Source: a virus | DNA length: 18,722 bases | Strand: one strand, 5' to 3' | IMG/VR virus record: IMGVR_UViG_3300045988_025530 | Shown here: piece after piece, positions 1 to 18,722 of the stretch | Layout of the letters: each line of letters starts with the position of its first letter | Position numbering within the stretch: the first letter of the stretch is position 1 | The notes under the pieces: model-generated | The model's database searches: none | The model's input: the letters and a program-made list of their open reading frames with translations, nothing else | Told to the model about the DNA's origin: nothing | Translations under genes and position numbers: made by a program

Positions 1-8
1 TCCGATCT
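1..8. other. Probable Illumina adapter remnant (TCCGATCT = 3' end of ...GCTCTTCCGATCT) fused to the genome terminus
   Basis: The first 8 nt are TCCGATCT and the last 8 nt are AGATCGGA, the start of the read-through adapter AGATCGGAAGAGC. The match is only 8 nt but exact at both ends. Confidence 0.65.
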
Positions 9-232
9 AAAAGGAGGGGTGGCCTCCTGGCAGCTGGCCTTTTTCCACAACTGTTCTGTTGTGTGTTTTTGTTCTTGTGTTTTGTTCTGTGTTTTTCATT
101 GCTGTTCTTGTCTTGTCATTTGTTATCACCTCTGTTGTATTCTCTTTCCTTGTTCTTTTTTCGTCGGGTTTTTTTGATGTTTCTGCGTGTCGTGTTTTGT
201 GGTGTTGTATTATATGAGTATCGGCCAAGGTA
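1..232. repeat. Left inverted terminal repeat (ITR); 224 bp if the 8-nt adapter is removed
   Basis: Nt 1-232 equal the reverse complement of 18491-18722 (compared by eye). ORF-track translations 7..228(-) and 18495..18716(+) are identical. Imperfect similarity continues to about 244/18479 (GGAAGGATGG). There is a GC-rich terminal block at 9-43, followed by an extremely T/G-rich tract. Confidence 0.95.
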
Positions 233-3714: not shown

Positions 3715-4932
3715 TTAGAAGTTCGGTGGGGCACTAGCGCCGTCCCATACGACTAGCAGATTATACACGGTCCGATACCGGCTCGGGTATTGCCCGAAAA
3801 CACTGTCATTAAGCAGATTATCCAATAAACCGCCCAATGTGGTTGCTTTCGGTAGCGCCTCGGCGTATGCCGGGCCTTGATGATATGCAGACGCCCATAG
3901 TATCTGCATTTTCGCGTCCGAGTAGACTTGCGGATAATTGTTGTAATCCGTCTCGAACTGGTCACGTTGCCCCTGATGTGATTCGGCGCGTTGCGCCCAT
4001 GTTTTGAACGCCGCCGACTCCGTAGGGGTAAGAGGGCGTGTAAACGGCCCGCCATTGCCCATGAGTGCCGCTATCTCGGGGCATGTTTTGGCAAACGTCT
4101 CATAGCCTGTCGGGTCGGCGGTTTTCATCGCATTCAACACGTCCAACCGACGGTTAAACGACCATTGCGCAATCCCTATGCCCTGCCTGTTGGCTAATTC
4201 GACCGCGCCCCATTGCAATGAGCTTTCCACCGTGCCGATACAGTAGAGTGCGTAACTGCTTTTGCCGTTGCCTGTAGAGGGCGTGGCTTGGCCGCCCGAG
4301 TCACTGGGCGCTTTAACGCTACCCTTGGCCTTCCATGTTTGGGCCGTGGCTTTGTAGAAAATCATGGCACCCGCGCCACTGTCGTTGTCGCGGTAATGGT
4401 AGATAAGATTGTCGCCCTGTTGTTGTATCCACACGTCACTGCTGGATATGCTACCCGAGTTGTTCGAGCCGGTAGGGTTCGAGCCACTGTCATTGTCGCC
4501 GCCGTCCGGTTTTTTGCGCGGGTGCAAATATCCGATATACGCTTTTTGCAATGGGAGTAGTTTATGCACGCTTGGCTCGGGGTTTTGCGTAATCACGTCG
4601 ATGGAATCGCCCTGTATTCCATCAACGACAATGGCCACGTGCGTTGACGGATAATTGGGATAGCAGACCTGCCATATGGCTACGTCGCCGGGCATAGGGT
4701 TCCATGTGTTGTCTTTTTTCTCGAAAATCTCCCCGACTCTTGCGCTTACGGGATGATGTGTGTATAATCCCCCGGCCCAACCGGTAGGGGTGATACAATC
4801 CTGAACACTACACCCGTACTCATCCATGCAATATTTTGCCCACAAGTCCCAGCATTGCGGGCCCCAACTGCCGTCCATGTCCCAAAAGTGGTTTTCGGTC
4901 TGTTTCACCCATGTCCTGAAGTCAACTGCCAT
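3715..4932 (-). CDS. Tail-associated peptidoglycan hydrolase: N-terminal CHAP domain + C-terminal phi29 gp13-type lysozyme-like domain
   Basis: CHAP-like Cys/His signature (WGPQCWDLWAKYC ... PSTHVAIVV). Gly/Ser/Asn linker (GGDNDSGSNPTGSNNSGS). The C-terminal VESSLQWGAVELANRQGIGIAQWSFNRRL resembles phi29 gp13 SESTINPG...LGFGLVQWT. Its position in the tail module matches gp13. Confidence 0.7.
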   Translation of the reverse strand: MAVDFRTWVKQTENHFWDMDGSWGPQCWDLWAKYCMDEYGCSVQDCITPTGWAGGLYTHHPVSARVGEIFEKKDNTWNPMPGDVAIWQVCYPNYPSTHVAIVVDGIQGDSIDVITQNPEPSVHKLLPLQKAYIGYLHPRKKPDGGDNDSGSNPTGSNNSGSISSSDVWIQQQGDNLIYHYRDNDSGAGAMIFYKATAQTWKAKGSVKAPSDSGGQATPSTGNGKSSYALYCIGTVESSLQWGAVELANRQGIGIAQWSFNRRLDVLNAMKTADPTGYETFAKTCPEIAALMGNGGPFTRPLTPTESAAFKTWAQRAESHQGQRDQFETDYNNYPQVYSDAKMQILWASAYHQGPAYAEALPKATTLGGLLDNLLNDSVFGQYPSRYRTVYNLLVVWDGASAPPNF

Positions 4933-4942
4933 ACATAACAGT

Positions 4943-4972
4943 ATACCCCGCCCGGACTACCGGACGGGGTAT
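4943..4972 (-). other. Intergenic stem-loop (possible attenuator/terminator or 5' structure)
   Basis: ATACCCCG-c-CCGG acta CCGG-a-CGGGGTAT (12 bp with one mismatch). There is no clear U-tract on the minus strand. Confidence 0.4.
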
Positions 4973-4988
4973 GTTTCACGTGAAACAT
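4971..4988. promoter_or_regulatory. 18-bp perfect palindrome ATGTTTCACGTGAAACAT (candidate operator / RNA hairpin), site 1
   Basis: Perfect dyad read directly, in the 73-nt gap between the fibre gene stop (5006) and the tail-lysin start (4932). The same core recurs at 10961, 14009 and 14617. Confidence 0.5.
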
Positions 4989-5005
4989 GGGGCGTTACGC
5001 TGGTA

Positions 5006-5938
5006 TCAGATTACAAAATAAGAGAGTTGCAGTGTCTGTTTCAGCTGAGTGTTTGTCTTGATTGTTCCCTGACAATAGAAAGATACTACCCCATCTCCGG
5101 TGATACTAATGTTGCATGGCCCGGAGTCATTACCATACGTGAACGGATAGGAATTCATAAAGCCGTTCGGTCGATATCCTTCCGGCATTGTCCCGATAAT
5201 GAGTGAACCGGGGTTCACGTTCGACGTGCAGTTAGCGTTGGAGTGCCCATCTGGCGAACCGAAACGCACCATGATGTTGACGAATTTTGACAGCGGTGAG
5301 TAATATGCCGTCCATGATACGTTGGAAAAATGATTAGTCAGCACGTTAATTCGCTGAACCAATGCCGTCGCTGATTGTCCCAAGGTTTTCAGGTTGGTTA
5401 ATTCTTCCTGTACGTTCGTCGCCGCCGCCGTCGCGTTTGTCGCTTCAGTGTGGATTTGCTGTGCGGTGCCTGAGTATCCGCCCTGCTTGGTGAACGTCGT
5501 GTCCACCTGATTTCTGGTGTACACACTGCTGGCGTCCGCCTTACCTTCAACCCTATTGGTCAAGCCCGACACGGTGCCCCGTAGTGAGGAAAGTTCGGCG
5601 TCCTCCGCCTTGCCGTTGATAGTGTTCATAAGGTTCTGCGCGGTCGTAGGAGACGTGACGCCGAGCTTGCTGAAATAGTCATCCAATTCGGCAATATCGT
5701 TCTTGTTGGTCTGCGCAAGCGCCGCCGCGTCATCCGCCGCCTGCTTCGCCTCGCCTGCCGCTGTGTTCGCGTTGTTCGCCGCCGCCGTCGCCGTGGTGAT
5801 GTTGGTCGCGTTAGCGTACATCTGATTATCGATTGTCGTCATTGCATCAGTGAAGTCACCGCGCCATGACGGCCGGTCGTTCGGATTGTCGCCAAACGCC
5901 GGCAGATTATAGTGTCCGGTATGCTGTGTAGTTGACAT
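5006..5938 (-). CDS. Tail fibre / receptor-binding appendage protein (long form)
   Basis: 310 aa. The N-terminal about 45 aa are shared with the next ORF (HYNLPAFG..DRPSWRGDFTDAMTTIDNQ). The centre is Ala/Thr/Asn-rich and coiled-coil-like; the C-terminal half looks like a beta-rich globular domain. RBS is GAAGGAG. It lies in the tail module. Confidence 0.6.
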   Translation of the reverse strand: MSTTQHTGHYNLPAFGDNPNDRPSWRGDFTDAMTTIDNQMYANATNITTATAAANNANTAAGEAKQAADDAAALAQTNKNDIAELDDYFSKLGVTSPTTAQNLMNTINGKAEDAELSSLRGTVSGLTNRVEGKADASSVYTRNQVDTTFTKQGGYSGTAQQIHTEATNATAAATNVQEELTNLKTLGQSATALVQRINVLTNHFSNVSWTAYYSPLSKFVNIMVRFGSPDGHSNANCTSNVNPGSLIIGTMPEGYRPNGFMNSYPFTYGNDSGPCNISITGDGVVSFYCQGTIKTNTQLKQTLQLSYFVI

Positions 5939-8770: not shown

Positions 8771-11104
8771 TCACTCATAGCTGATGCCCGATAGTGGCTC
8801 ATTGTCCGCCCAGTCCGTCACGCCAATATACTCCGGTTTGCTCCATACGGTCACGCCCCGCTCGAACATGCCCTTGATGGTCAGACGGTATTCCTCCGGC
8901 AACGTGCCGCGAACATACGCCTCCTGCATCTGCCAAAACGTGAACTTCTTCATGCATTCCAGCGAGGCGGGCGGGGTGATGAAACGCTGGACGAAATACC
9001 CATACCGTAGCATGTATTCGCCTGCGGCCCTCAGGGCACTGGGGGCGCACGTTTTGAACCTGACCAGCACGCCCATGATTCCATTGCTCAAATTGAACAT
9101 GTCGCCACCGAGCGCGCCCGAGGTGGTTGGCGGCGTCAACTGCATTTGCTGGACTTGCGCGTTGATTCCCGCAATGGCGTTCTGGTAGTCGCCTTGGGCG
9201 GCGTAGGCGGCCAGTCCATAATTGGCCTGTGAGGTGATGGCATTGAGTTGGTTGCTCAATGCGGTCGCGCCGCTTGCATAGGCGTTCGCCTGCGAAGTGG
9301 ACGCCGTATTGGTGGCAATCTGATTTGCCGTACTGGCGGCGGCGGTGGAATTTGAAATAGCCGCCGAGGAATTGATGCCGTGGTTGGCGATGTCCATTTG
9401 AGCGGTGCCGAGGAACGCGCCGCCGATTGCGTTCGCCACTCCCATTGGGCTACGGGAGGCTATGGCGTTCAGACTACCGCCGATAGCTCCCGCCATACCA
9501 TTGAGGTTATTGTTACTGATGTTCTGTTGCACCTGCAATCCGGCCATCTGGCTGGCTCTGTCCTGACTGATGGCAAGGGACTGGTTCAGCGAGTTCGCCG
9601 TAATCGCATTGTTCGCGGTGCGGTTCTCATTGGCCCAATTGGTTTGCTGTGCGGCGTATTCGCGTTGCCACATTGCGTTCGAGTTGGCGACATCCGCCGA
9701 CGCCAATGCTTTTTGTCGCGTCCATTGCGCGGATTCCTGAGCATAGGCGCGGGTGTATGCGCTGTTCGCCATAGCCAATGCCCCGCCATTGTTGACAACG
9801 CTGAAATGAGGCAGATTGGTGATTCCAAAACTCGCATTAAGCATTTCACCGCCGTCAATCGGCAGACCGTAACCTCGATTGTTGATTTGGAGTGGGGTCA
9901 GCGTGTCCGCCCCGGCCTCATTGTATCCGGGGACATAAAAATTGATTCGTGTACCGGATGGCGCATAGGTGTACGTTTCCCTGATAGTGAGGTTATCGGA
10001 CTGGATGTCTTCCGGCCTGTAGTTGATTGTCGTTCCGTTGAGGCAACTGCATTCCACGACGCAATAGGGGTAGCAGTATAGTTTACGAAGATTGCGGTAT
10101 CGTTGCGGGATGTTAAAAAGGTTCCTGAAATCGGATACCGTCATGATGTCCTCGTAGCGCATGTCCGAGTCTACGCCGCTTTGGAAACCATAGACTCGTC
10201 CATGTTGCGCGTCAACCGACTGGCCGAAGATTTGTGTTACCTCCTGACCGTAGCGGTTGATGTAATCCTGTGGGATTTTCGGCACCATGTACACGGCGCA
10301 AATGCCTTGGGTAATCCACGGGTATGATGTTCCGGCCGCCATGATGTTCCACACGTAACTTATTCGGGAGTCACAATAGTAGACATTGCATCCATCCGTC
10401 GCACCCTCGAATATACTGCCCGTCGCCGTACGCAAATCGGGTTTCGACTCACTGCCGGGGGATTTGGTCAAATCCGTGGTGCTCACAATAATGACGCCAT
10501 AATCAACCCAATCCAATCCGCCATGCACGGTGTCCAGATGCTCCCCGGATATGATGGAATGATACCGTTGCGCCGTCGTTACCATCTCACTGCCGGTATC
10601 CAGACCCTCGGGGAGTGCCAGATAGGTGCGCCCGTAACCGTCCCACTGGTGTTCATTGGCCACACCGATATGACCGCGCGTCACATAGCAACTGCCGAAC
10701 GTGACATCATGCTGGAAACTCTGCCATACATCCAGCATCAAAACCAACTGGGTGCAATGGGCGTTGACGTATTCGACGCGCTGGATGAAGTAGTACCATG
10801 CGCGCGGCCCCTCAAGCTCGGGGTAATCATTATAGGCCACCAGATAATTCCAGTTCGACGCCTCATTGAATGGGAGTTCGACGCGGGCGGGCGCGTTGAA
10901 GATGTGCATGATGGCCGGGCGGCATTCCACGCCATCCAGCTTATCAAACCACTGTTCTTGTGTTTCACGTGAAACAAACCGGACAACATCCCGGTAGGAC
11001 GCATCCCATGGGACGCGGCAGAGTTTCAGCGTGGTGTTGGGTGTCCATTCCGCCCATGAGAAATTAGCCTCCACGTAGGGGTTCACATCGTCAATCATTG
11101 TCAA
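8771..11104 (-). CDS. Tail knob protein (phi29 gp9-like) with expanded low-complexity loop
   Basis: [44 protein letters not shown] compares with phi29 [54 protein letters not shown] compares with MYPYCVTE. The C-terminal LRYGYFVQR...GVTVWS compares with HKYGYKINR...GITLWH. RBS is GGAGG. Confidence 0.85.
   Translation of the reverse strand: [777 protein letters not shown]
10961..10976. repeat. 16-bp perfect palindrome TGTTTCACGTGAAACA, site 2 (inside the tail-knob gene)
   Basis: Read directly. It encodes V-S-R-E-T (residues 44-48) on the minus strand. Confidence 0.5.
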
Positions 11105-11120
11105 GCCTCCGGTATGACAA

Positions 11121-11155
11121 GGCCCGGAGCGCTCACGTGGATTACGCTCCGGGCC
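11121..11155 (-). terminator. Stem-loop 2 downstream of the major capsid gene (attenuating terminator candidate)
   Basis: GGCCCGGAGCG (11121-11131) / CGCTCCGGGCC (11145-11155) form a perfect 11-bp stem with a 13-nt loop containing CACGTG. On the minus strand it is followed by TTGTCAT, a weak U-tract. Confidence 0.5.
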
Positions 11156-11176
11156 TTGTATTGCATCTCGCCGTGA

Positions 11177-11204
11177 GGGAGGGTAGCCAACCGGCTACCC
11201 TCTC
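11177..11204 (-). terminator. Stem-loop 1 immediately after the major capsid gene stop
   Basis: GAGGGTAGCC (11179-11188) / GGCTACCCTC (11193-11202) form a 10-bp stem with a 4-nt loop, extendable by 2 bp. Confidence 0.5.
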
Positions 11205-11213
11205 ATTATATCA
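11205..11213 (-). promoter_or_regulatory. Extended -10 box TGATATAAT overlapping the capsid gene stop codon
   Basis: The minus strand reads GCA TGA TATAAT GAGAGG, a perfect TGnTATAAT. No good -35 was seen. Confidence 0.35.
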
Positions 11214-12950
11214 TGCGGTCACGGTCACATTCTTCTTGCCGGATGCGCCGAACAGCGTGGCGGTGATATCGGATGCACCTGCCTTGACGCCGGTCACGAC
11301 GCCCGACTCGGACACGGTGGCGTTGGCCGTGGTGCCGGATGTCCATGCGGCTTGCGCGGTCACGTCGGCGGTTCGCCCGTCAATCATGGTCGCCGTAGCG
11401 GTCGCCTGCACCGATTTACCCACTCCTACATTCGGGACGTTGACGGCAATCGACGCGATAATCGACGGGTTGAATCCGATAACACCGTCGCCGACCACCG
11501 GCACGTCCAAGGCGGCGGATACGGTGCCCGGCACCTCCGGTGTCGCCGGATTCGTGTACAGGGCGGTGGCCGTAACCGGGATAGTGGTGTTCGGTTCGTC
11601 GAGGCCGACCACCAGCACACCGGTGGGCGAAATGTAGGTATACTCGCTCTTCAGCTTGGCGGTGTCGCCGATACGATATTCCACCGCGTCGGAACGGAAC
11701 GTGGCCGTGCCATCATTGCCGATGGTCGTGTCGGCTGTGACCTGTACCGCGCCGCCACGCGCCACGTCCGTCGGGGTTTCCGTGCCACCACCGTACATGG
11801 CGAGCTTAAGTTGGAAGGTCGGCGTCTTGGCCGTCGTACCTGTGGGAGCCACCACCTTGGAAGTGGAACCCGCGCCCATCCAGAACATGACGGCGGGGGC
11901 GAAACCGGACACCGAGATAATGTGCTGGACGTGCAGATAATGGTTCACCGAGTTGATGTTCACCGGATTGATCTGCTGGGTCATCTCATTGATTACAGGG
12001 ATGTCAATGAGGAATTTATCAGTGGTGAGAATGGCCTGCACGCCATTCATGCCGAACCTGTCCTGCGGGATAACGATAATCCGGTCGATGGTCGGCTCCG
12101 CGTCGGTACGCTGGAACACCGTGGCCAGACCCTGCACGTCAAGCGCCGACTTGACTTCGGGGGAGCAGAACAGTACGAGTTCGTCGGGGCGGGCAAACGT
12201 CGGCATGTGACGCGCATTATATCGGGTGGACACGAATTTCAGCGTGTCCGCCCAAGCGCGAATCTGGCGCAACATGTCGCGCGCGTCGGTTTCCGTCGAA
12301 CCCATGTCGTTAAGGTCATGCTCCATGTGGACGCGCCAGTATCCGCCGAGCTTCGCATACTCGACGAACTGGTGGCACATGGCCTCGAACAAGTCAACCT
12401 CGGCGGCATTATAGCAGGAGGTGAGAATCTGGGAGGTGAGCGAGGCCAGACCGGTTTCGGAGGTGAACGCACGTTGGAGTGTTTTATCCTCCGTGGTAGC
12501 AGGGTAGAAGTGGGTAAAGTCGAGACGGTGGTAGAGGCTATCCACGTCGATTTTCCATTTGCGGAAGTTGTCCGCGCCCAAGTATTCCGCGTCCGGGTCG
12601 TACACCTGTGCGAGTGGCATACCTACGGCGATTTCCTGCCACGTGTCGCCATACGCCTGAGATGCACGCTGGAAAACACTCAGCGGGTTGTTCCAACGCC
12701 ACGTGTTCACGTAAGTACCGCCGATACGGTTCACCAGCGCCGAGTAAAACTCGTTCTTCAACTGGGTGGAAGACATGAGGGTGGCCATCTGGCGGTCCAT
12801 GTTCATCTGAGTGGCCGAAGGCATACGCCTCTGATACTCGGGAGATGCCTCATTGCGAATCATGTTGAGAATCTGCGCGTTATTGAACTCGGTGAGCGGG
12901 CGCAGTTGCTGTTTCGGCGTCACCACTGGAGTGGTTAGCATGATAATCAT
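11211..12950 (-). CDS. Major capsid protein (phi29 gp8-like, HK97 fold inferred) with C-terminal Ig-like (Big_2-type) domains
   Basis: [28 protein letters not shown] compares with phi29 [62 protein letters not shown] compares with [34 protein letters not shown]. The C-terminal [55 protein letters not shown] is a Big_2-like repeat. The start may be the ATG at 12950 or at 12941. Confidence 0.92.
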   Translation of the reverse strand: [579 protein letters not shown]

Positions 12951-12964
12951 TTCCTTCCTGACTG

Positions 12965-13306
12965 TTAGTCTTCAAACAGGTCATCGAATGTACTGTAGAT
13001 GCCGTTGTAGTCATCGTCGGTCATTTCAGCCGATTCCGGCGTCGCATTATCGTCCGGGCCGTCGTTGAACACGTGGTCTGCGGCGGCGTCGCGCATAGCC
13101 TCAATGGTTTTGGAGAGTTCCGCCACGGTCGCTTCCAAGGCGCTCAACCGGTTGGCCATGTCGGCGTCCTTATCGTCGCCCGCGTCCTCGGGTTCGCCAT
13201 TGTCCTGCGTTTCAGGCTCCGGGTTTGGCGTATTATCGTCGGTCGGCCCGGCGTCCGGTTCGGTGTCGGGCGTGGTGTCCGGTTCGGTGTTTTCGGTATC
13301 GTCCAT
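12965..13306 (-). CDS. Scaffolding protein (phi29 gp7 position), highly acidic
   Basis: 113 aa from the ATG at 13306 (RBS AAGGGG, 7-nt spacer; the track ORF starts at GTG 13312). Termini are very D/E-rich and there is a central helix, ANRLSALEATVAELSKTIEAMRDAAA. It lies immediately upstream of the capsid gene. Confidence 0.7.
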   Translation of the reverse strand: MDDTENTEPDTTPDTEPDAGPTDDNTPNPEPETQDNGEPEDAGDDKDADMANRLSALEATVAELSKTIEAMRDAAADHVFNDGPDDNATPESAEMTDDDYNGIYSTFDDLFED

Positions 13307-13315
13307 AATCACCCC

Positions 13316-13486
13316 TTAAAGTAAGTGGCATGACGGCAATCACGCCGTCATGCCGGTTTGCTAGGCTGTGCGGGTTCCCTCGCCGTCGCTGGGCGTTGGC
13401 TACGCACGTCTACATCCGACCGAATCGCCTTACCGATTTGCCTGCCGGTCGGGCCATCGAATCGACTTGGGACGCACACCCCGCTA
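13316..13486 (-). ncRNA. Candidate about 160-170 nt structured RNA or regulatory 5' leader of the late operon (hypothetical)
   Basis: The 181-nt gap between pol and scaffold is GC-rich, has no plausible ORF, and has an extended -10 box at its upstream edge. Visible pairings (minus-strand RNA): 13490-13473 with 13372-13353 (about 16 bp, interrupted); CCGACCG 13452-13446 with CGGUCGG 13422-13416, enclosing AAUCG/CGAUU (13438-13434 / 13427-13423); and a perfect 11-bp terminal hairpin at 13354-13327. Confidence 0.3.
13327..13354 (-). terminator. Perfect 11-bp stem-loop just upstream of the scaffold RBS (terminator/attenuator candidate)
   Basis: GGCATGACGGC aatcac GCCGTCATGCC. On the minus strand it is followed by ACUUACUUUAAGGGG, which is moderately U-rich. 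Confidence 0.5.
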
Positions 13487-13492
13487 CCGGAT

Positions 13493-13501
13493 ATTATAGC
13501 A
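13493..13501 (-). promoter_or_regulatory. Extended -10 box TGCTATAAT overlapping the DNA polymerase stop codon (candidate middle/late promoter)
   Basis: The minus strand reads CTTTTA TGC TAT AAT ATCCGG, a perfect TGnTATAAT. The -35 region (TGATGA at 17-nt spacing) is poor, which extended -10 promoters tolerate. Confidence 0.45.
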
Positions 13502-14954
13502 TAAAAGTATGGCCGTCATCATTGATATGGCGTGAACCGGGTATAAACTCATCATAGGGGATGGGGGCGGCTCGATGTACGCCGCTCAAACGCATTACCG
13601 TATCGCCGCCCGTTTCCACGCCGCAATATTTGCGATTGCCGAGGATACGGAGCCTGTCATAGGTGTGGTCGTTTTTCCACGCGCCTAGTTTTCGGTCATC
13701 CGTTTCTATACCTGCGGGCGCGTCCAGCCCTTCCAGTATCATGCCGTCGGTATCGGCGTAGAGTACGCGCTCGGCGTTATCGTTCATGGCGCGGGATAGT
13801 ATTCGCCTCCCGTAGGCGTTGACATATGCGGCGGTTGGCAACCATGCCAGACTGTTGGCCGACTCGGGTTTATCCACGGTAAAATCCACGCCACCGTCCA
13901 CGGACGGTTTCGGGTGTAACATGGGCCGGTAGAGGGAGGCCCCGAATTTTCCCACCAGTGAATTCAGCAACAGTTTCGCCATCTGCCTGCGCTCCCCGGT
14001 TTCTGTTTGTTTCACGTGGAACCATTTGTCCACGTATGTGTAGTAGAGTCCGTGTGATTTGCGGAATTTCCAGCCGCCGATATGCTCCCACACATGGATG
14101 TCATAGTTTTCGGCCAGCGTTTCCCAATCCACATCCGTGACCGGCATAGTTACGACGCCGAGCGTACTATCCAGACGTTCACCCTCATACCCCCATACGG
14201 GTAGGATATTGGTGAGTGTCGCCGTTTTTCCCGGTTTCAACCTTGCATCAAACGCAATGACATCGATATGGAGCGGATAGTCATTGTCATGTTGATACTT
14301 CCCGTCGTACCATATGGGTGAGCCTACCGGCATGGGCGCATCGCGCATGATACTCGGGTAGAGGCTGTTCACGTCCCAGCTTCGGCAATCCCGGTATTCG
14401 CCCGGCTTGCTGTATACTATCGCCCCATAGTAGGCGGGGCGCATACGGTGATAAACATCTTTGTCCAATGACGGAAAATGACGTTTGAATCCGGCGTAAT
14501 CCCCGTCGATATAGTCGGTCATTGCCATTGACGCTATCGTAGTGCCCCTGAGATTCAGGGAAGCGCATTCCTGCGCGATATTCCACGTGGTTTCCAAGTC
14601 ATCCGCGCCGCCGAATGTTTCACGTAAAACATTCAAGCCATCGTCGCGCGTAATATTGCGCACGTCCACAAAATCCACGGTGATACCGCCCATGCGCACG
14701 CGGAAACTGTAGAAATGTCCACGGATGTTAAACGTGCCCCACACACCGTCCTTGGCTGGGTTCGACTGCGAGGGGAGTCGTTTCAACAGTTCGGCGGCTA
14801 TGGGCTTGATGTCCTGCCATCCGTGGGCACACCATACGCGCGTATGATAATTGAGCATGGTGAGACGGATGACGGTGTTCACCGTCAATGGTTCCATGCC
14901 GTCATCCGTCAATAGTGTTGCGCCGTCTGTTGCCGCCGTTCGACGCTCTTTCAT
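13494..14954 (-). CDS. Family-B protein-primed DNA polymerase (phi29 gp2-like), short N-terminal domain
   Basis: Motif A is DVNSLYPSIM (phi29 DVNSLYPAQM). DGKYQHDNDYPLHIDVIAFDARLKPG compares with EGKYVWDEDYPLHIQHIRCEFELKEG. YxGA is PAYYGA. Motif B is KLLLNSLVGKF (phi29 KLMLNSLYGKF). Motif C is LYADTDGM (phi29 IYCDTDSI). KxY is NRKY. RBS is AAAGGA. Confidence 0.95.
   Translation of the reverse strand: MKERRTAATDGATLLTDDGMEPLTVNTVIRLTMLNYHTRVWCAHGWQDIKPIAAELLKRLPSQSNPAKDGVWGTFNIRGHFYSFRVRMGGITVDFVDVRNITRDDGLNVLRETFGGADDLETTWNIAQECASLNLRGTTIASMAMTDYIDGDYAGFKRHFPSLDKDVYHRMRPAYYGAIVYSKPGEYRDCRSWDVNSLYPSIMRDAPMPVGSPIWYDGKYQHDNDYPLHIDVIAFDARLKPGKTATLTNILPVWGYEGERLDSTLGVVTMPVTDVDWETLAENYDIHVWEHIGGWKFRKSHGLYYTYVDKWFHVKQTETGERRQMAKLLLNSLVGKFGASLYRPMLHPKPSVDGGVDFTVDKPESANSLAWLPTAAYVNAYGRRILSRAMNDNAERVLYADTDGMILEGLDAPAGIETDDRKLGAWKNDHTYDRLRILGNRKYCGVETGGDTVMRLSGVHRAAPIPYDEFIPGSRHINDDGHTFML
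14009..14022. repeat. Palindrome GTTTCACGTGGAAC (one mismatched pair), site 3 (inside pol)
   Basis: Read directly. The minus strand encodes F-H-V-K-Q (TTC CAC GTG AAA CAA), a different codon register from sites 2 and 4. Confidence 0.45.
14613..14634. repeat. 22-bp palindrome GAATGTTTCACGTAAAACATTC (one mismatched pair), site 4 (inside pol)
   Basis: Read directly. The minus strand encodes N-V-L-R-E-T-F. Confidence 0.45.
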
Positions 14955-17625: not shown

Positions 17626-18054
17626 TCAACATCTTTCTATATCCTTCGCTTCCATAATCACAGTAGAACAACCCTTTGCCAAACACTTTGCATCATACGA
17701 CACAGTACGTTTGAGCTCATCAAAACCACGGAATTCGGCAAATTTCACGTCAAGATGCAAGGGGTCGGATTCGCCTTTCCATTGCAATACATCTATATTC
17801 AGTCTCATCCATTGGAGTTCAATGAACTTATTATAGAGGCACACCGAAGCATGAACATCGCCATCAATGCACTTCATAACACCCTTATGCTTCCTGCAAA
17901 ATCTGACAGGAATGAAATACTCCAGCTCATTTGAAAACGAATTACATCCTACACCAGCGCAGGCCGTTATATAAATAAAATAATTGTCAGGCAATAGACT
18001 ATTAAACAGGTTCACAATAATGTTATCATTAAAATAATTCATCTTTATTCTCAT
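17626..18054 (-). CDS. Hypothetical early protein (142 aa), Cys-rich, encoded in a low-GC island
   Basis: The ORF has an ATGA overlap with the upstream ORF. It contains 9 Cys, including CAGVGC, CRKHKGVMKC and CLAKGC. Local GC looks about 30-40% against more than 50% elsewhere (by-eye counts). Confidence 0.5.
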   Translation of the reverse strand: MRIKMNYFNDNIIVNLFNSLLPDNYFIYITACAGVGCNSFSNELEYFIPVRFCRKHKGVMKCIDGDVHASVCLYNKFIELQWMRLNIDVLQWKGESDPLHLDVKFAEFRGFDELKRTVSYDAKCLAKGCSTVIMEAKDIERC

Positions 18055-18481: not shown

Positions 18482-18531
18482 CCTTCCTTATACCTTGGCC
18501 GATACTCATATAATACAACACCACAAAACAC
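18479..18531 (-). promoter_or_regulatory. Putative early promoter + RBS cassette, copy 3 (inner edge of right ITR)
   Basis: This is the reverse complement of copy 1 through GGCCAAGGTA, followed by TAAGGAAGGATGGCGGTTGATATG. The TATTAT -10-like box lies at 18510-18515 (minus strand). Confidence 0.4.
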
Positions 18532-18722
18532 GACACGCAGAAACATCAAAAAAACCCGACGAAAAAAGAACAAGGAAAGAGAATACAACAGAGGTGATAA
18601 CAAATGACAAGACAAGAACAGCAATGAAAAACACAGAACAAAACACAAGAACAAAAACACACAACAGAACAGTTGTGGAAAAAGGCCAGCTGCCAGGAGG
18701 CCACCCCTCCTTTTAGATCGGA
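18491..18722. repeat. Right inverted terminal repeat
   Basis: Exact reverse complement of 1-232. Confidence 0.95.
18715..18722. other. Probable Illumina adapter remnant (AGATCGGA)
   Basis: It matches the first 8 nt of the AGATCGGAAGAGC read-through adapter. Confidence 0.65.

Follow-up and report, generated by a model that had tools for sequence, protein, structure and literature searches.

Why would a small phage carry four copies of one palindrome, a single copy between genes and the other three within them? The question is raised by the IMG/VR virus record IMGVR_UViG_3300045988_025530, whose 18,722 nucleotides (the whole stretch analysed, hereafter the window) make up the complete linear genome, 18.7 kb long, of a phi29-like podophage with protein-primed replication, bounded by perfect inverted terminal repeats (ITRs) of 232 bp. 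An earlier note, drawn up from the letters alone, had singled out the palindrome and offered three readings of it: the operator of a dimeric regulator from phage or host, a set of RNA-processing hairpins, or sites that organise a nucleoprotein complex. This first interpretation is partly supported by our analysis; what the motif is had escaped it. Judged by its sequence, the palindrome with its flanks is a chromosomal parS of the canonical form, on which the partition protein ParB (also known as Spo0J) loads. We consider it probable that the four copies act as host-type parS, on which the ParB of the host would build a partition complex that positions or partitions the unintegrated phage genome.

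Four chromosomal-type parS sites on a phage genome

The 14-mer GTTTCACGTGAAAC occurs exactly at 4973-4986 and 10962-10975, and with one mismatch each at 14009-14022 and 14617-14630 (sites S1 to S4; Table 1). These four matches at zero or one mismatch compare with 0.10 expected, and none of 200 shuffles reached four, which bears out the earlier claim that the copies are not a product of chance. Extended to the 16-mer TGTTTCACGTGAAACA, the sites show 0, 0, 2 and 1 mismatches, respectively. The parS consensus of Bacillus subtilis is TGTTNCACGTGAAACA, sites of the GTTTCACGTGAAAC type are found across many phyla (PMC7022226), and TGTTTCACGTGAAACA with up to two mismatches is the customary criterion in parS searches of gut bacteria (PMC10197239); all four sites lie within that limit. 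The two mismatches of S3 affect the outermost base and position 5, the latter being the ‘N’ of the B. subtilis consensus. The origin-proximal chromosomal location typical of parS is missing here, as the sites lie on a phage genome; they are a borrowed copy and not a chromosomal centromere.

Not every repeat pointed out beforehand belongs to this set. The half-sites at 17743 and 18222 are no more than chance would give, as TTTCACG occurs eight times, six of them within the four full sites, with 3.2 expected, and the repeat with swapped half-site order, GTGAACCggGGTTCAC at 5203, is conserved in none of the 61 relatives described below. The statement that the copies stand in different codon registers was correct: two registers occur among the three coding sites, in addition to the non-coding one, S2 (V-S-R-E-T) being read as S4 (V-L-R-E-T) and S3 (W-F-H-V-K-Q) being offset by one base. 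In the tail-knob gene, S2 covers codons 43-48 if translation starts with the TTG at 11104, and codons 41-46 if it starts with the ATG at 11098, which is the likely start. The core hairpin of the motif is worth just -2.3 kcal/mol and is left unused in the fold predicted at 14008. RNA hairpins were set aside because of this weakness; among the readings first offered, a host dimeric DNA-binding protein and nucleoprotein-organising sites were right in kind, and the RNA-processing hairpins were not.

Searches of the open reading frames (ORFs) of the window against protein families gave no match to ParB, ParA or helix-turn-helix families. No integrase or repressor was matched among them either, and the phage looks strictly lytic. 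The same searches agree with the earlier remark that a p4-like regulator cannot be recognised.

A Bifidobacterium host and its own centromere

Several lines of sequence evidence place the host in the genus Bifidobacterium. The nearest named phages infect Bifidobacterium (37-42% amino-acid identity in the capsid protein, 57% in the endolysin), and among 185,579 species genomes the endolysin finds its best match in B. phasiani (65% over the full length). Comparison of the window with 151 Bifidobacterium genomes yielded matches of 28-37 nt, 86-96% identical and clustered in three genomes. The two clusters in which repeats were checked (L101, G164:C1:1458180-1461216; L105, G173:C2:14459-17490) lie within arrays that have I-C-like (ATTTCAATCCACGC...GCGAC) and I-E-like (GGGATCATCCCCGCGCATGCGGGGAACAC) repeats, and because of this location we take them for CRISPR spacers directed against the phage clade of the window; spacers are 91-96% identical to the window. 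A comparable pair of short matches is present at G202:C1:1625954-1626524. Exact copies of the connector protein came only from metagenome or run assemblies, which were human gut metagenomes wherever the sample type was shown. The fragmented Bifidobacterium assembly G228 contains distant podophage contigs only (C10, C142 and C261), with capsid proteins 41-43% identical in amino acids to that of the window.

The genomes of these bacteria carry the same sequence. B. phasiani has six parS sites (up to two mismatches), all inside 6.5 kb of one contig. In the three CRISPR-bearing genomes, 6-8 sites each share the 14-bp core and lie around a ParB_N gene, within about 5-10 kb, apart from three outlying sites in G202; the organisms that presumably supply ParB encode it and have the sites of the phage as their own. 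All 61 Bifidobacterium genomes sampled contain between 1 and 18 sites per 1.5-3.3 Mb, compared with 0-3 for a reversed control pattern, and the density in the phage (4 in 18.7 kb) is about 100 times that of the host. Since the motif is rare and clustered around parB, it is the host centromere and not an abundant host k-mer, a trivial explanation that had been raised at the outset and that these counts rule out.

Conservation and turnover among relatives

IMG/VR holds more than 100 relatives of the window phage, with polymerase identities of 87-98%. The 61 near-complete ones (1.04 Mb) contain 184 parS sites, namely three sites in 32 genomes, four in 18, two in 6, one in 4 and none in 1. S1 is found at the same place in about 17 of the 61 and, with up to three mismatches allowed, S3 and S4 are found at the same codons of the polymerase gene in 58 and 60, respectively. 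The 14-bp core is perfect at the polymerase sites in most relatives, hence S3 and S4 of the window are slightly decayed.

The tail-knob region shows how these sites turn over. In 34 of the 61 genomes, the window included, the knob gene has the allele of the window (allele 1), with parS contained in CGG TTT GTT TCA CGT GAA ACA CAA (RFVSRETQ). In the 27 others (allele 2), the homologous codons read RFESPQKQ, with 8 mismatches to parS over 16 positions, and 24 of these 27 genomes have a perfect parS in the spacer between the capsid and knob genes, some 150 bp upstream, where it lies inside the 26-bp palindrome GGGAGTGTTTCACGTGAAACACTCCC followed by a T-run. The two forms are never found together in one genome. 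The same 16-mer thus occupies two non-homologous positions, one coding and the other non-coding, and this comparison of the sequences strongly indicates selection on the DNA word itself. The spacer copy probably doubles as a terminator: GGGAGTGTTTCACGTGAAACACTCCC with its T-run, as seen in L188, L210, L187, L190, L246 and L251, makes a terminator-like hairpin of -18.9 kcal/mol. The capsid-knob spacer of the window (11105-11210) has two other hairpins, one of them with CACGTG in its loop.

In the polymerase gene, other Bifidobacterium podophages have YGR, SEL or GDL in place of the FHV of S3 (within WYGRKS or WSELKQ), and ELF in place of the VLR of S4. By this comparison, the polymerase protein has been bent to carry the site. 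We also inferred a maximum-likelihood tree from 80 polymerase genes, counted the changes on it by parsimony and assessed them by permutation. Third-codon positions have undergone 5.9 changes on average inside the two polymerase sites versus 10.4 across the gene (P = 0.009). This tree-based test supersedes a cruder diversity test on 45 polymerases, in which the sites were at the 8th-10th percentile only. The most changeable positions of the sites are position 5 (the ‘N’ mentioned above) and the outermost base. Across 286 distinct phage-site instances, mismatches affect position 1/16 in 27% and position 5/12 in 5%, against 42% and 4% in 26 host sites, a comparison that carries an ascertainment bias as only sites with up to three mismatches were counted. 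Synonymous constraint at the sites is real but moderate. The earlier view that conservation probably acts at the level of DNA or RNA was right in that selection acts on the DNA and not on the protein.

In one small sub-lineage (L064, L065 and L072; the same as L247 and others), the first polymerase site bears the symmetric double variant GTCTCACGTGAGAC, and the knob site reads GCTTCACGTGAGAC. The GTCTCACGTGAGAC variant could reflect decay or a changed partner; co-evolution with a variant parS of the host was rejected, as no such site occurs in the 151 Bifidobacterium genomes.

A related lineage has no sites at all. In this BP1/BD811P-like lineage, the capsid proteins of which are 80-90% identical to those of B. 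pseudocatenulatum phage BP1 and B. dentium phage BD811P2, we found no parS in 80 contigs (1.30 Mb), despite the same host genus. The isolated Bifidobacterium podophages BP1, BD811P2, BadAztec1 and BadAargau2 also lack parS, hence the sites are not required for the growth of such phages. These genomes and the 80 contigs rule out a general trait of Bifidobacterium podophages; parS is a maintained, clade-specific trait and no requirement of the phage type. S1 is also present in the human-faeces contig MT836241.1 (L085), which has a BP1-like/clade-B capsid. There, positions 10859-11099 match 4748-4992 of the window with 80% nucleotide identity, which is confined to the start of the CHAP-lysin gene and S1, and suggests that a CHAP-lysin/S1 module moves between the two lineages by recombination.

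These data bear on the idea that the palindromes are RNA or DNA hairpins, serving as processing sites or terminators, or else functionless repeats that arose by chance or hitch-hiking. The allele-2 site, at the centre of a 26-nt hairpin that precedes a U-run, would suit a terminator, but the core by itself is weak and not favoured in context, and the copies share their sequence and not merely a structure. Chance is opposed by the expectation of 0.1 copies, and the existence of a related lineage without any site also speaks against this idea. Of all explanations considered here, we judge this one the least probable.

phi29 and other phi29-like phages

The closest precedent is phi29, which is reported to have five parS sites and whose genome segregates into the prespore with the involvement of host Spo0J, alongside Spo0A boxes through which the lytic cycle is shut down (PMC2731898). 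Our scan, applied to phi29 as a positive control, recovered five sites, four with one mismatch and one with three. Phage-borne host parS was already known from phi29, and the notable point here is the host, a non-spore-forming actinobacterium. Both phages are small protein-primed podophages with a linear genome and without a parB of their own, in which several host parS sites (five in phi29, four in the window) are scattered and partly intragenic. They differ in that the parS sites and Spo0A boxes of phi29 serve forespore trapping, and in that the sites of the window clade turn over between coding and non-coding positions. To our knowledge, Bifidobacterium does not sporulate and has no Spo0A (0A boxes were not searched for in the window). 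Consequently, the spore rationale of phi29 cannot hold in this host, entrapment in spores is ruled out, and the purpose of the sites must be a different one.

At up to two mismatches, parS sites are present in several other phi29-like phages: six in phiZP2 (host C. perfringens), two in vB_EfaP_2/Chl-5 (E. faecium) and one each in CH17P1 (Hungatella), CS229P2 (C. symbiosum) and CI644P5 (C. innocuum), with none in Cp-1, Av-1, P68 and GA-1 from various hosts. Those of phiZP2 (L396; 5202, 8229, 8254, 10328, 12203 and 12228) occupy gaps between annotated genes and include two tandem pairs 25 bp apart; those of the E. faecium phage (L392) are at 1252 and 4784. In IMG/VR, at least 119 contigs contain the 16-mer without mismatch, versus 2 for a reversed control palindrome. 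Among the 119 contigs listed (L257-L375), 22 have at least two phi29 hallmark genes; they are mostly of 32-49% GC, have up to six sites, and only one belongs to the clade of the window. Another 93 of those listed are not phi29-like, some with 4-5 sites inside 1 kb (for example L277 and L316), and such contigs could represent plasmid-like elements or chromosomal origin regions that were classified as viral. phiZP2, the E. faecium phage and the gut metagenome contigs resemble the window phage in that they lack parB and carry 1-6 copies of the same 16-mer; by contrast, they infect low-GC Firmicutes, and most of their sites lie between genes. For each of two clinical isolates, an 18-kb ‘plasmid’ on deposit (CP063571.1, NZ_CP019991.1) is the genome of the E. 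faecium phage at 95% identity, and these records represent a carrier state in a non-spore-forming host. Our literature search found no paper describing such sites outside the phi29 group, and a 2024 review of phi29-like phages mentions neither parS nor Spo0J.

This distribution weighs on a further reading, according to which the palindrome would be the operator of a dimeric protein encoded by the phage itself, such as an unannotated early protein, and resemble parS by coincidence. Several early ORFs of the window are without family match, and the variant spelling shared by the sites of L064, L065 and L072 looks as if it were co-evolving with a phage protein. However, the sites are identical to host parS over the 14-bp core and tolerate change at the same positions, unrelated phi29-like lineages, which have no early genes in common, contain the same 16-mer, and the sites of phi29 were reported as sites of host Spo0J. 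An operator of this kind appears very improbable.

A proposed partition complex built by the host

The direct observations, that is, the identity with host parS, its rarity and clustering in the host, and its enrichment, conservation and turnover in the phage clade, lead us to propose the following course of events. Once the linear genome has entered a Bifidobacterium cell, host ParB, a clamp dependent on cytidine triphosphate (CTP), would load as dimers at S1-S4 and spread along the 18.7 kb of phage DNA, forming a partition-type nucleoprotein complex for which the phage would supply neither ParB nor ParA. The host ParABS system would then, most likely, position or partition the unintegrated genome while lytic development is slow or suspended, in other words, in a carrier state that would be the non-sporulating counterpart of the Spo0J-dependent forespore delivery of phi29. 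Binding of host ParB to S1-S4, like all the effects downstream of it, is something that we infer from sequence. For ParB-CTP clamps to accumulate, the DNA must be closed or blocked at its ends; where an end is free, the clamps run off (PMC7053999). The covalent terminal proteins of the phage may serve as end-blocks that keep the clamps from sliding off; a linear genome that is capped in this way and offers several loading sites could plausibly act as a substrate for ParB-CTP. The recurrence of the trait in protein-primed phages is perhaps due to this capacity of capped genomes to retain the clamps.

Such a complex would resemble, in part, two known systems. With the chromosomal ParB-parS complexes of Actinobacteria and Firmicutes it shares the 16-bp palindrome and its tolerant positions, but whereas host sites cluster around parB, those of the window are not near oriC and lie, far more densely, on a foreign linear replicon. 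With phages that have a ParABS of their own (P1, N15 and extrachromosomal mycobacteriophages; PMC7157519), it would presumably share the outcome, partition of an unintegrated phage genome. Those phages possess their own ParA, ParB and centromere, whereas the phage of the window, with no family match to ParA or ParB in any ORF, has only the cis site and would depend on host proteins.

Several observations weigh against a partition complex. Neither the 201 Bifidobacteriaceae genomes searched nor PLSDB yielded a copy of the window phage, which leaves the clade without a direct sign of a carrier state. Five of the 61 relatives retain one site or none, constraint is moderate, S3 and S4 of the window are imperfect and some changes inside the sites are replacements. 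Finally, GTCTCACGTGAGAC has no counterpart in the Bifidobacterium genomes, and the isolated podophages of this genus do without parS. We nevertheless rank positioning or partition by host ParABS first, in view of the precedent set by phi29 and of the episomes in E. faecium; titration of ParB comes second and silencing or shielding through ParB third, and neither a phage-encoded binder nor RNA hairpins are likely.

In the case of titration, the replicating phage genomes, hundreds in number and each with 3-4 sites, would act as a sponge that drains ParB from the chromosome, disturbing origin segregation, SMC loading and division to the gain of the phage. The same identity and enrichment evidence would apply, several sites per genome suit titration, and so does a phage that looks strictly lytic. 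Nonetheless, the sites of phi29 serve positioning and a parS-bearing relative in E. faecium persists as an episome. Moreover, most bacteria are only mildly affected when ParB is lost, and the effect builds up over generations, whereas the lytic cycle is short. A sponge therefore seems unlikely to us, although less so than a role of ParB as regulator or shield, in which its spreading would silence or time phage transcription, or coat the DNA and so protect it from nucleases of the host. Both S1 and the spacer site lie at borders of transcription units, the intergenic sites adjoin or sit within terminator-like hairpins, and in other phi29-like phages the sites are mostly intergenic, all of which would agree with regulation. 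Two of the four sites, on the other hand, are deep in the polymerase gene, far from promoters, and chromosomal ParB has weak effects on transcription; we regard this role as improbable.

It is tempting, if still doubtful, to see in the borrowing of host centromeres a general strategy of protein-primed phi29-like phages of Firmicutes and Actinobacteria, and not a sporulation trick. The capped genome would be a ‘closed’ substrate on which ParB-CTP clamps are retained, the host ParABS would partition the phage as an episome, and a heritable carrier state would ensue in non-spore-forming hosts such as Bifidobacterium and Enterococcus. The parS of phi29, usually seen as a sporulation curiosity, does recur in many cultured and uncultured phi29-like phages, including those of non-sporulating hosts. 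Bifidobacteria dominate the infant gut, where it is unclear how their ‘virulent’ phages persist, and a conserved host centromere on such a phage would offer a concrete route to persistence, or to manipulation of the host via ParB. parS sites might also provide a sequence marker for predicting carrier-state behaviour, which is unwelcome in therapeutic or starter-culture use.

Genome organisation and side observations

Nearly all genes of the window are on the minus strand. They code for a type-B protein-primed DNA polymerase, a phi29-type single-stranded DNA-binding protein, a phi29-type capsid protein, a gp9-like tail knob, a gp10-like connector, a lower collar, a gp16 packaging ATPase, a holin, a GH25-LysM endolysin and a CHAP tail lysin. 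The features referred to in the text are given in Table 1.

Table 1. Location of the parS sites and of the surrounding features in the window.
Feature	Position	Strand	Remarks
Left ITR	1-232		presumably terminal-protein-capped genome end
CHAP lysin gene	3715-4932	-	
Terminator-like hairpin	4943-4972	-	13 base pairs; adjoins S1
parS site S1	4972-4987		perfect TGTTTCACGTGAAACA; intergenic, between the stop of the tail gene and the hairpin before the CHAP lysin gene
Tail gene	5006-5938	-	
gp9-like tail-knob gene	8771-11104	-	contains S2
parS site S2	10961-10976		perfect 16-mer inside the tail-knob gene, reading R-F-V-S-R-E-T-Q
Protein-primed type-B DNA polymerase gene	13494-14954	-	contains S3 and S4
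parS site S3	14008-14023		polymerase codons 311-316 (W-F-H-V-K-Q); coding strand GGTTCCACGTGAAACA
parS site S4	14616-14631		polymerase codons 108-113 (V-L-R-E-T); 1 mismatch in the window
Right ITR	18491-18722		

The polymerase is short (486 aa) and family profiles match it from residue ~130 onward only, its N-terminal exonuclease region being, as far as the sequence tells, unusually small or divergent. At the genome ends, TCCGATCT at 1-8 and its complement at 18715-18722 resemble Illumina adapter tails; if these octamers are indeed adapter, the true ends start with AAAAGGAGG and the ITRs measure 224 bp. The small early ORFs of the window gave no match to the Pfam family AcrIC5 (anti-CRISPR I-C). 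A close relative, L383 (Logan assembly of ERR15315865), has at 58-240 an early gene of 60 aa that matches this family, which fits the I-C spacers found in Bifidobacterium.

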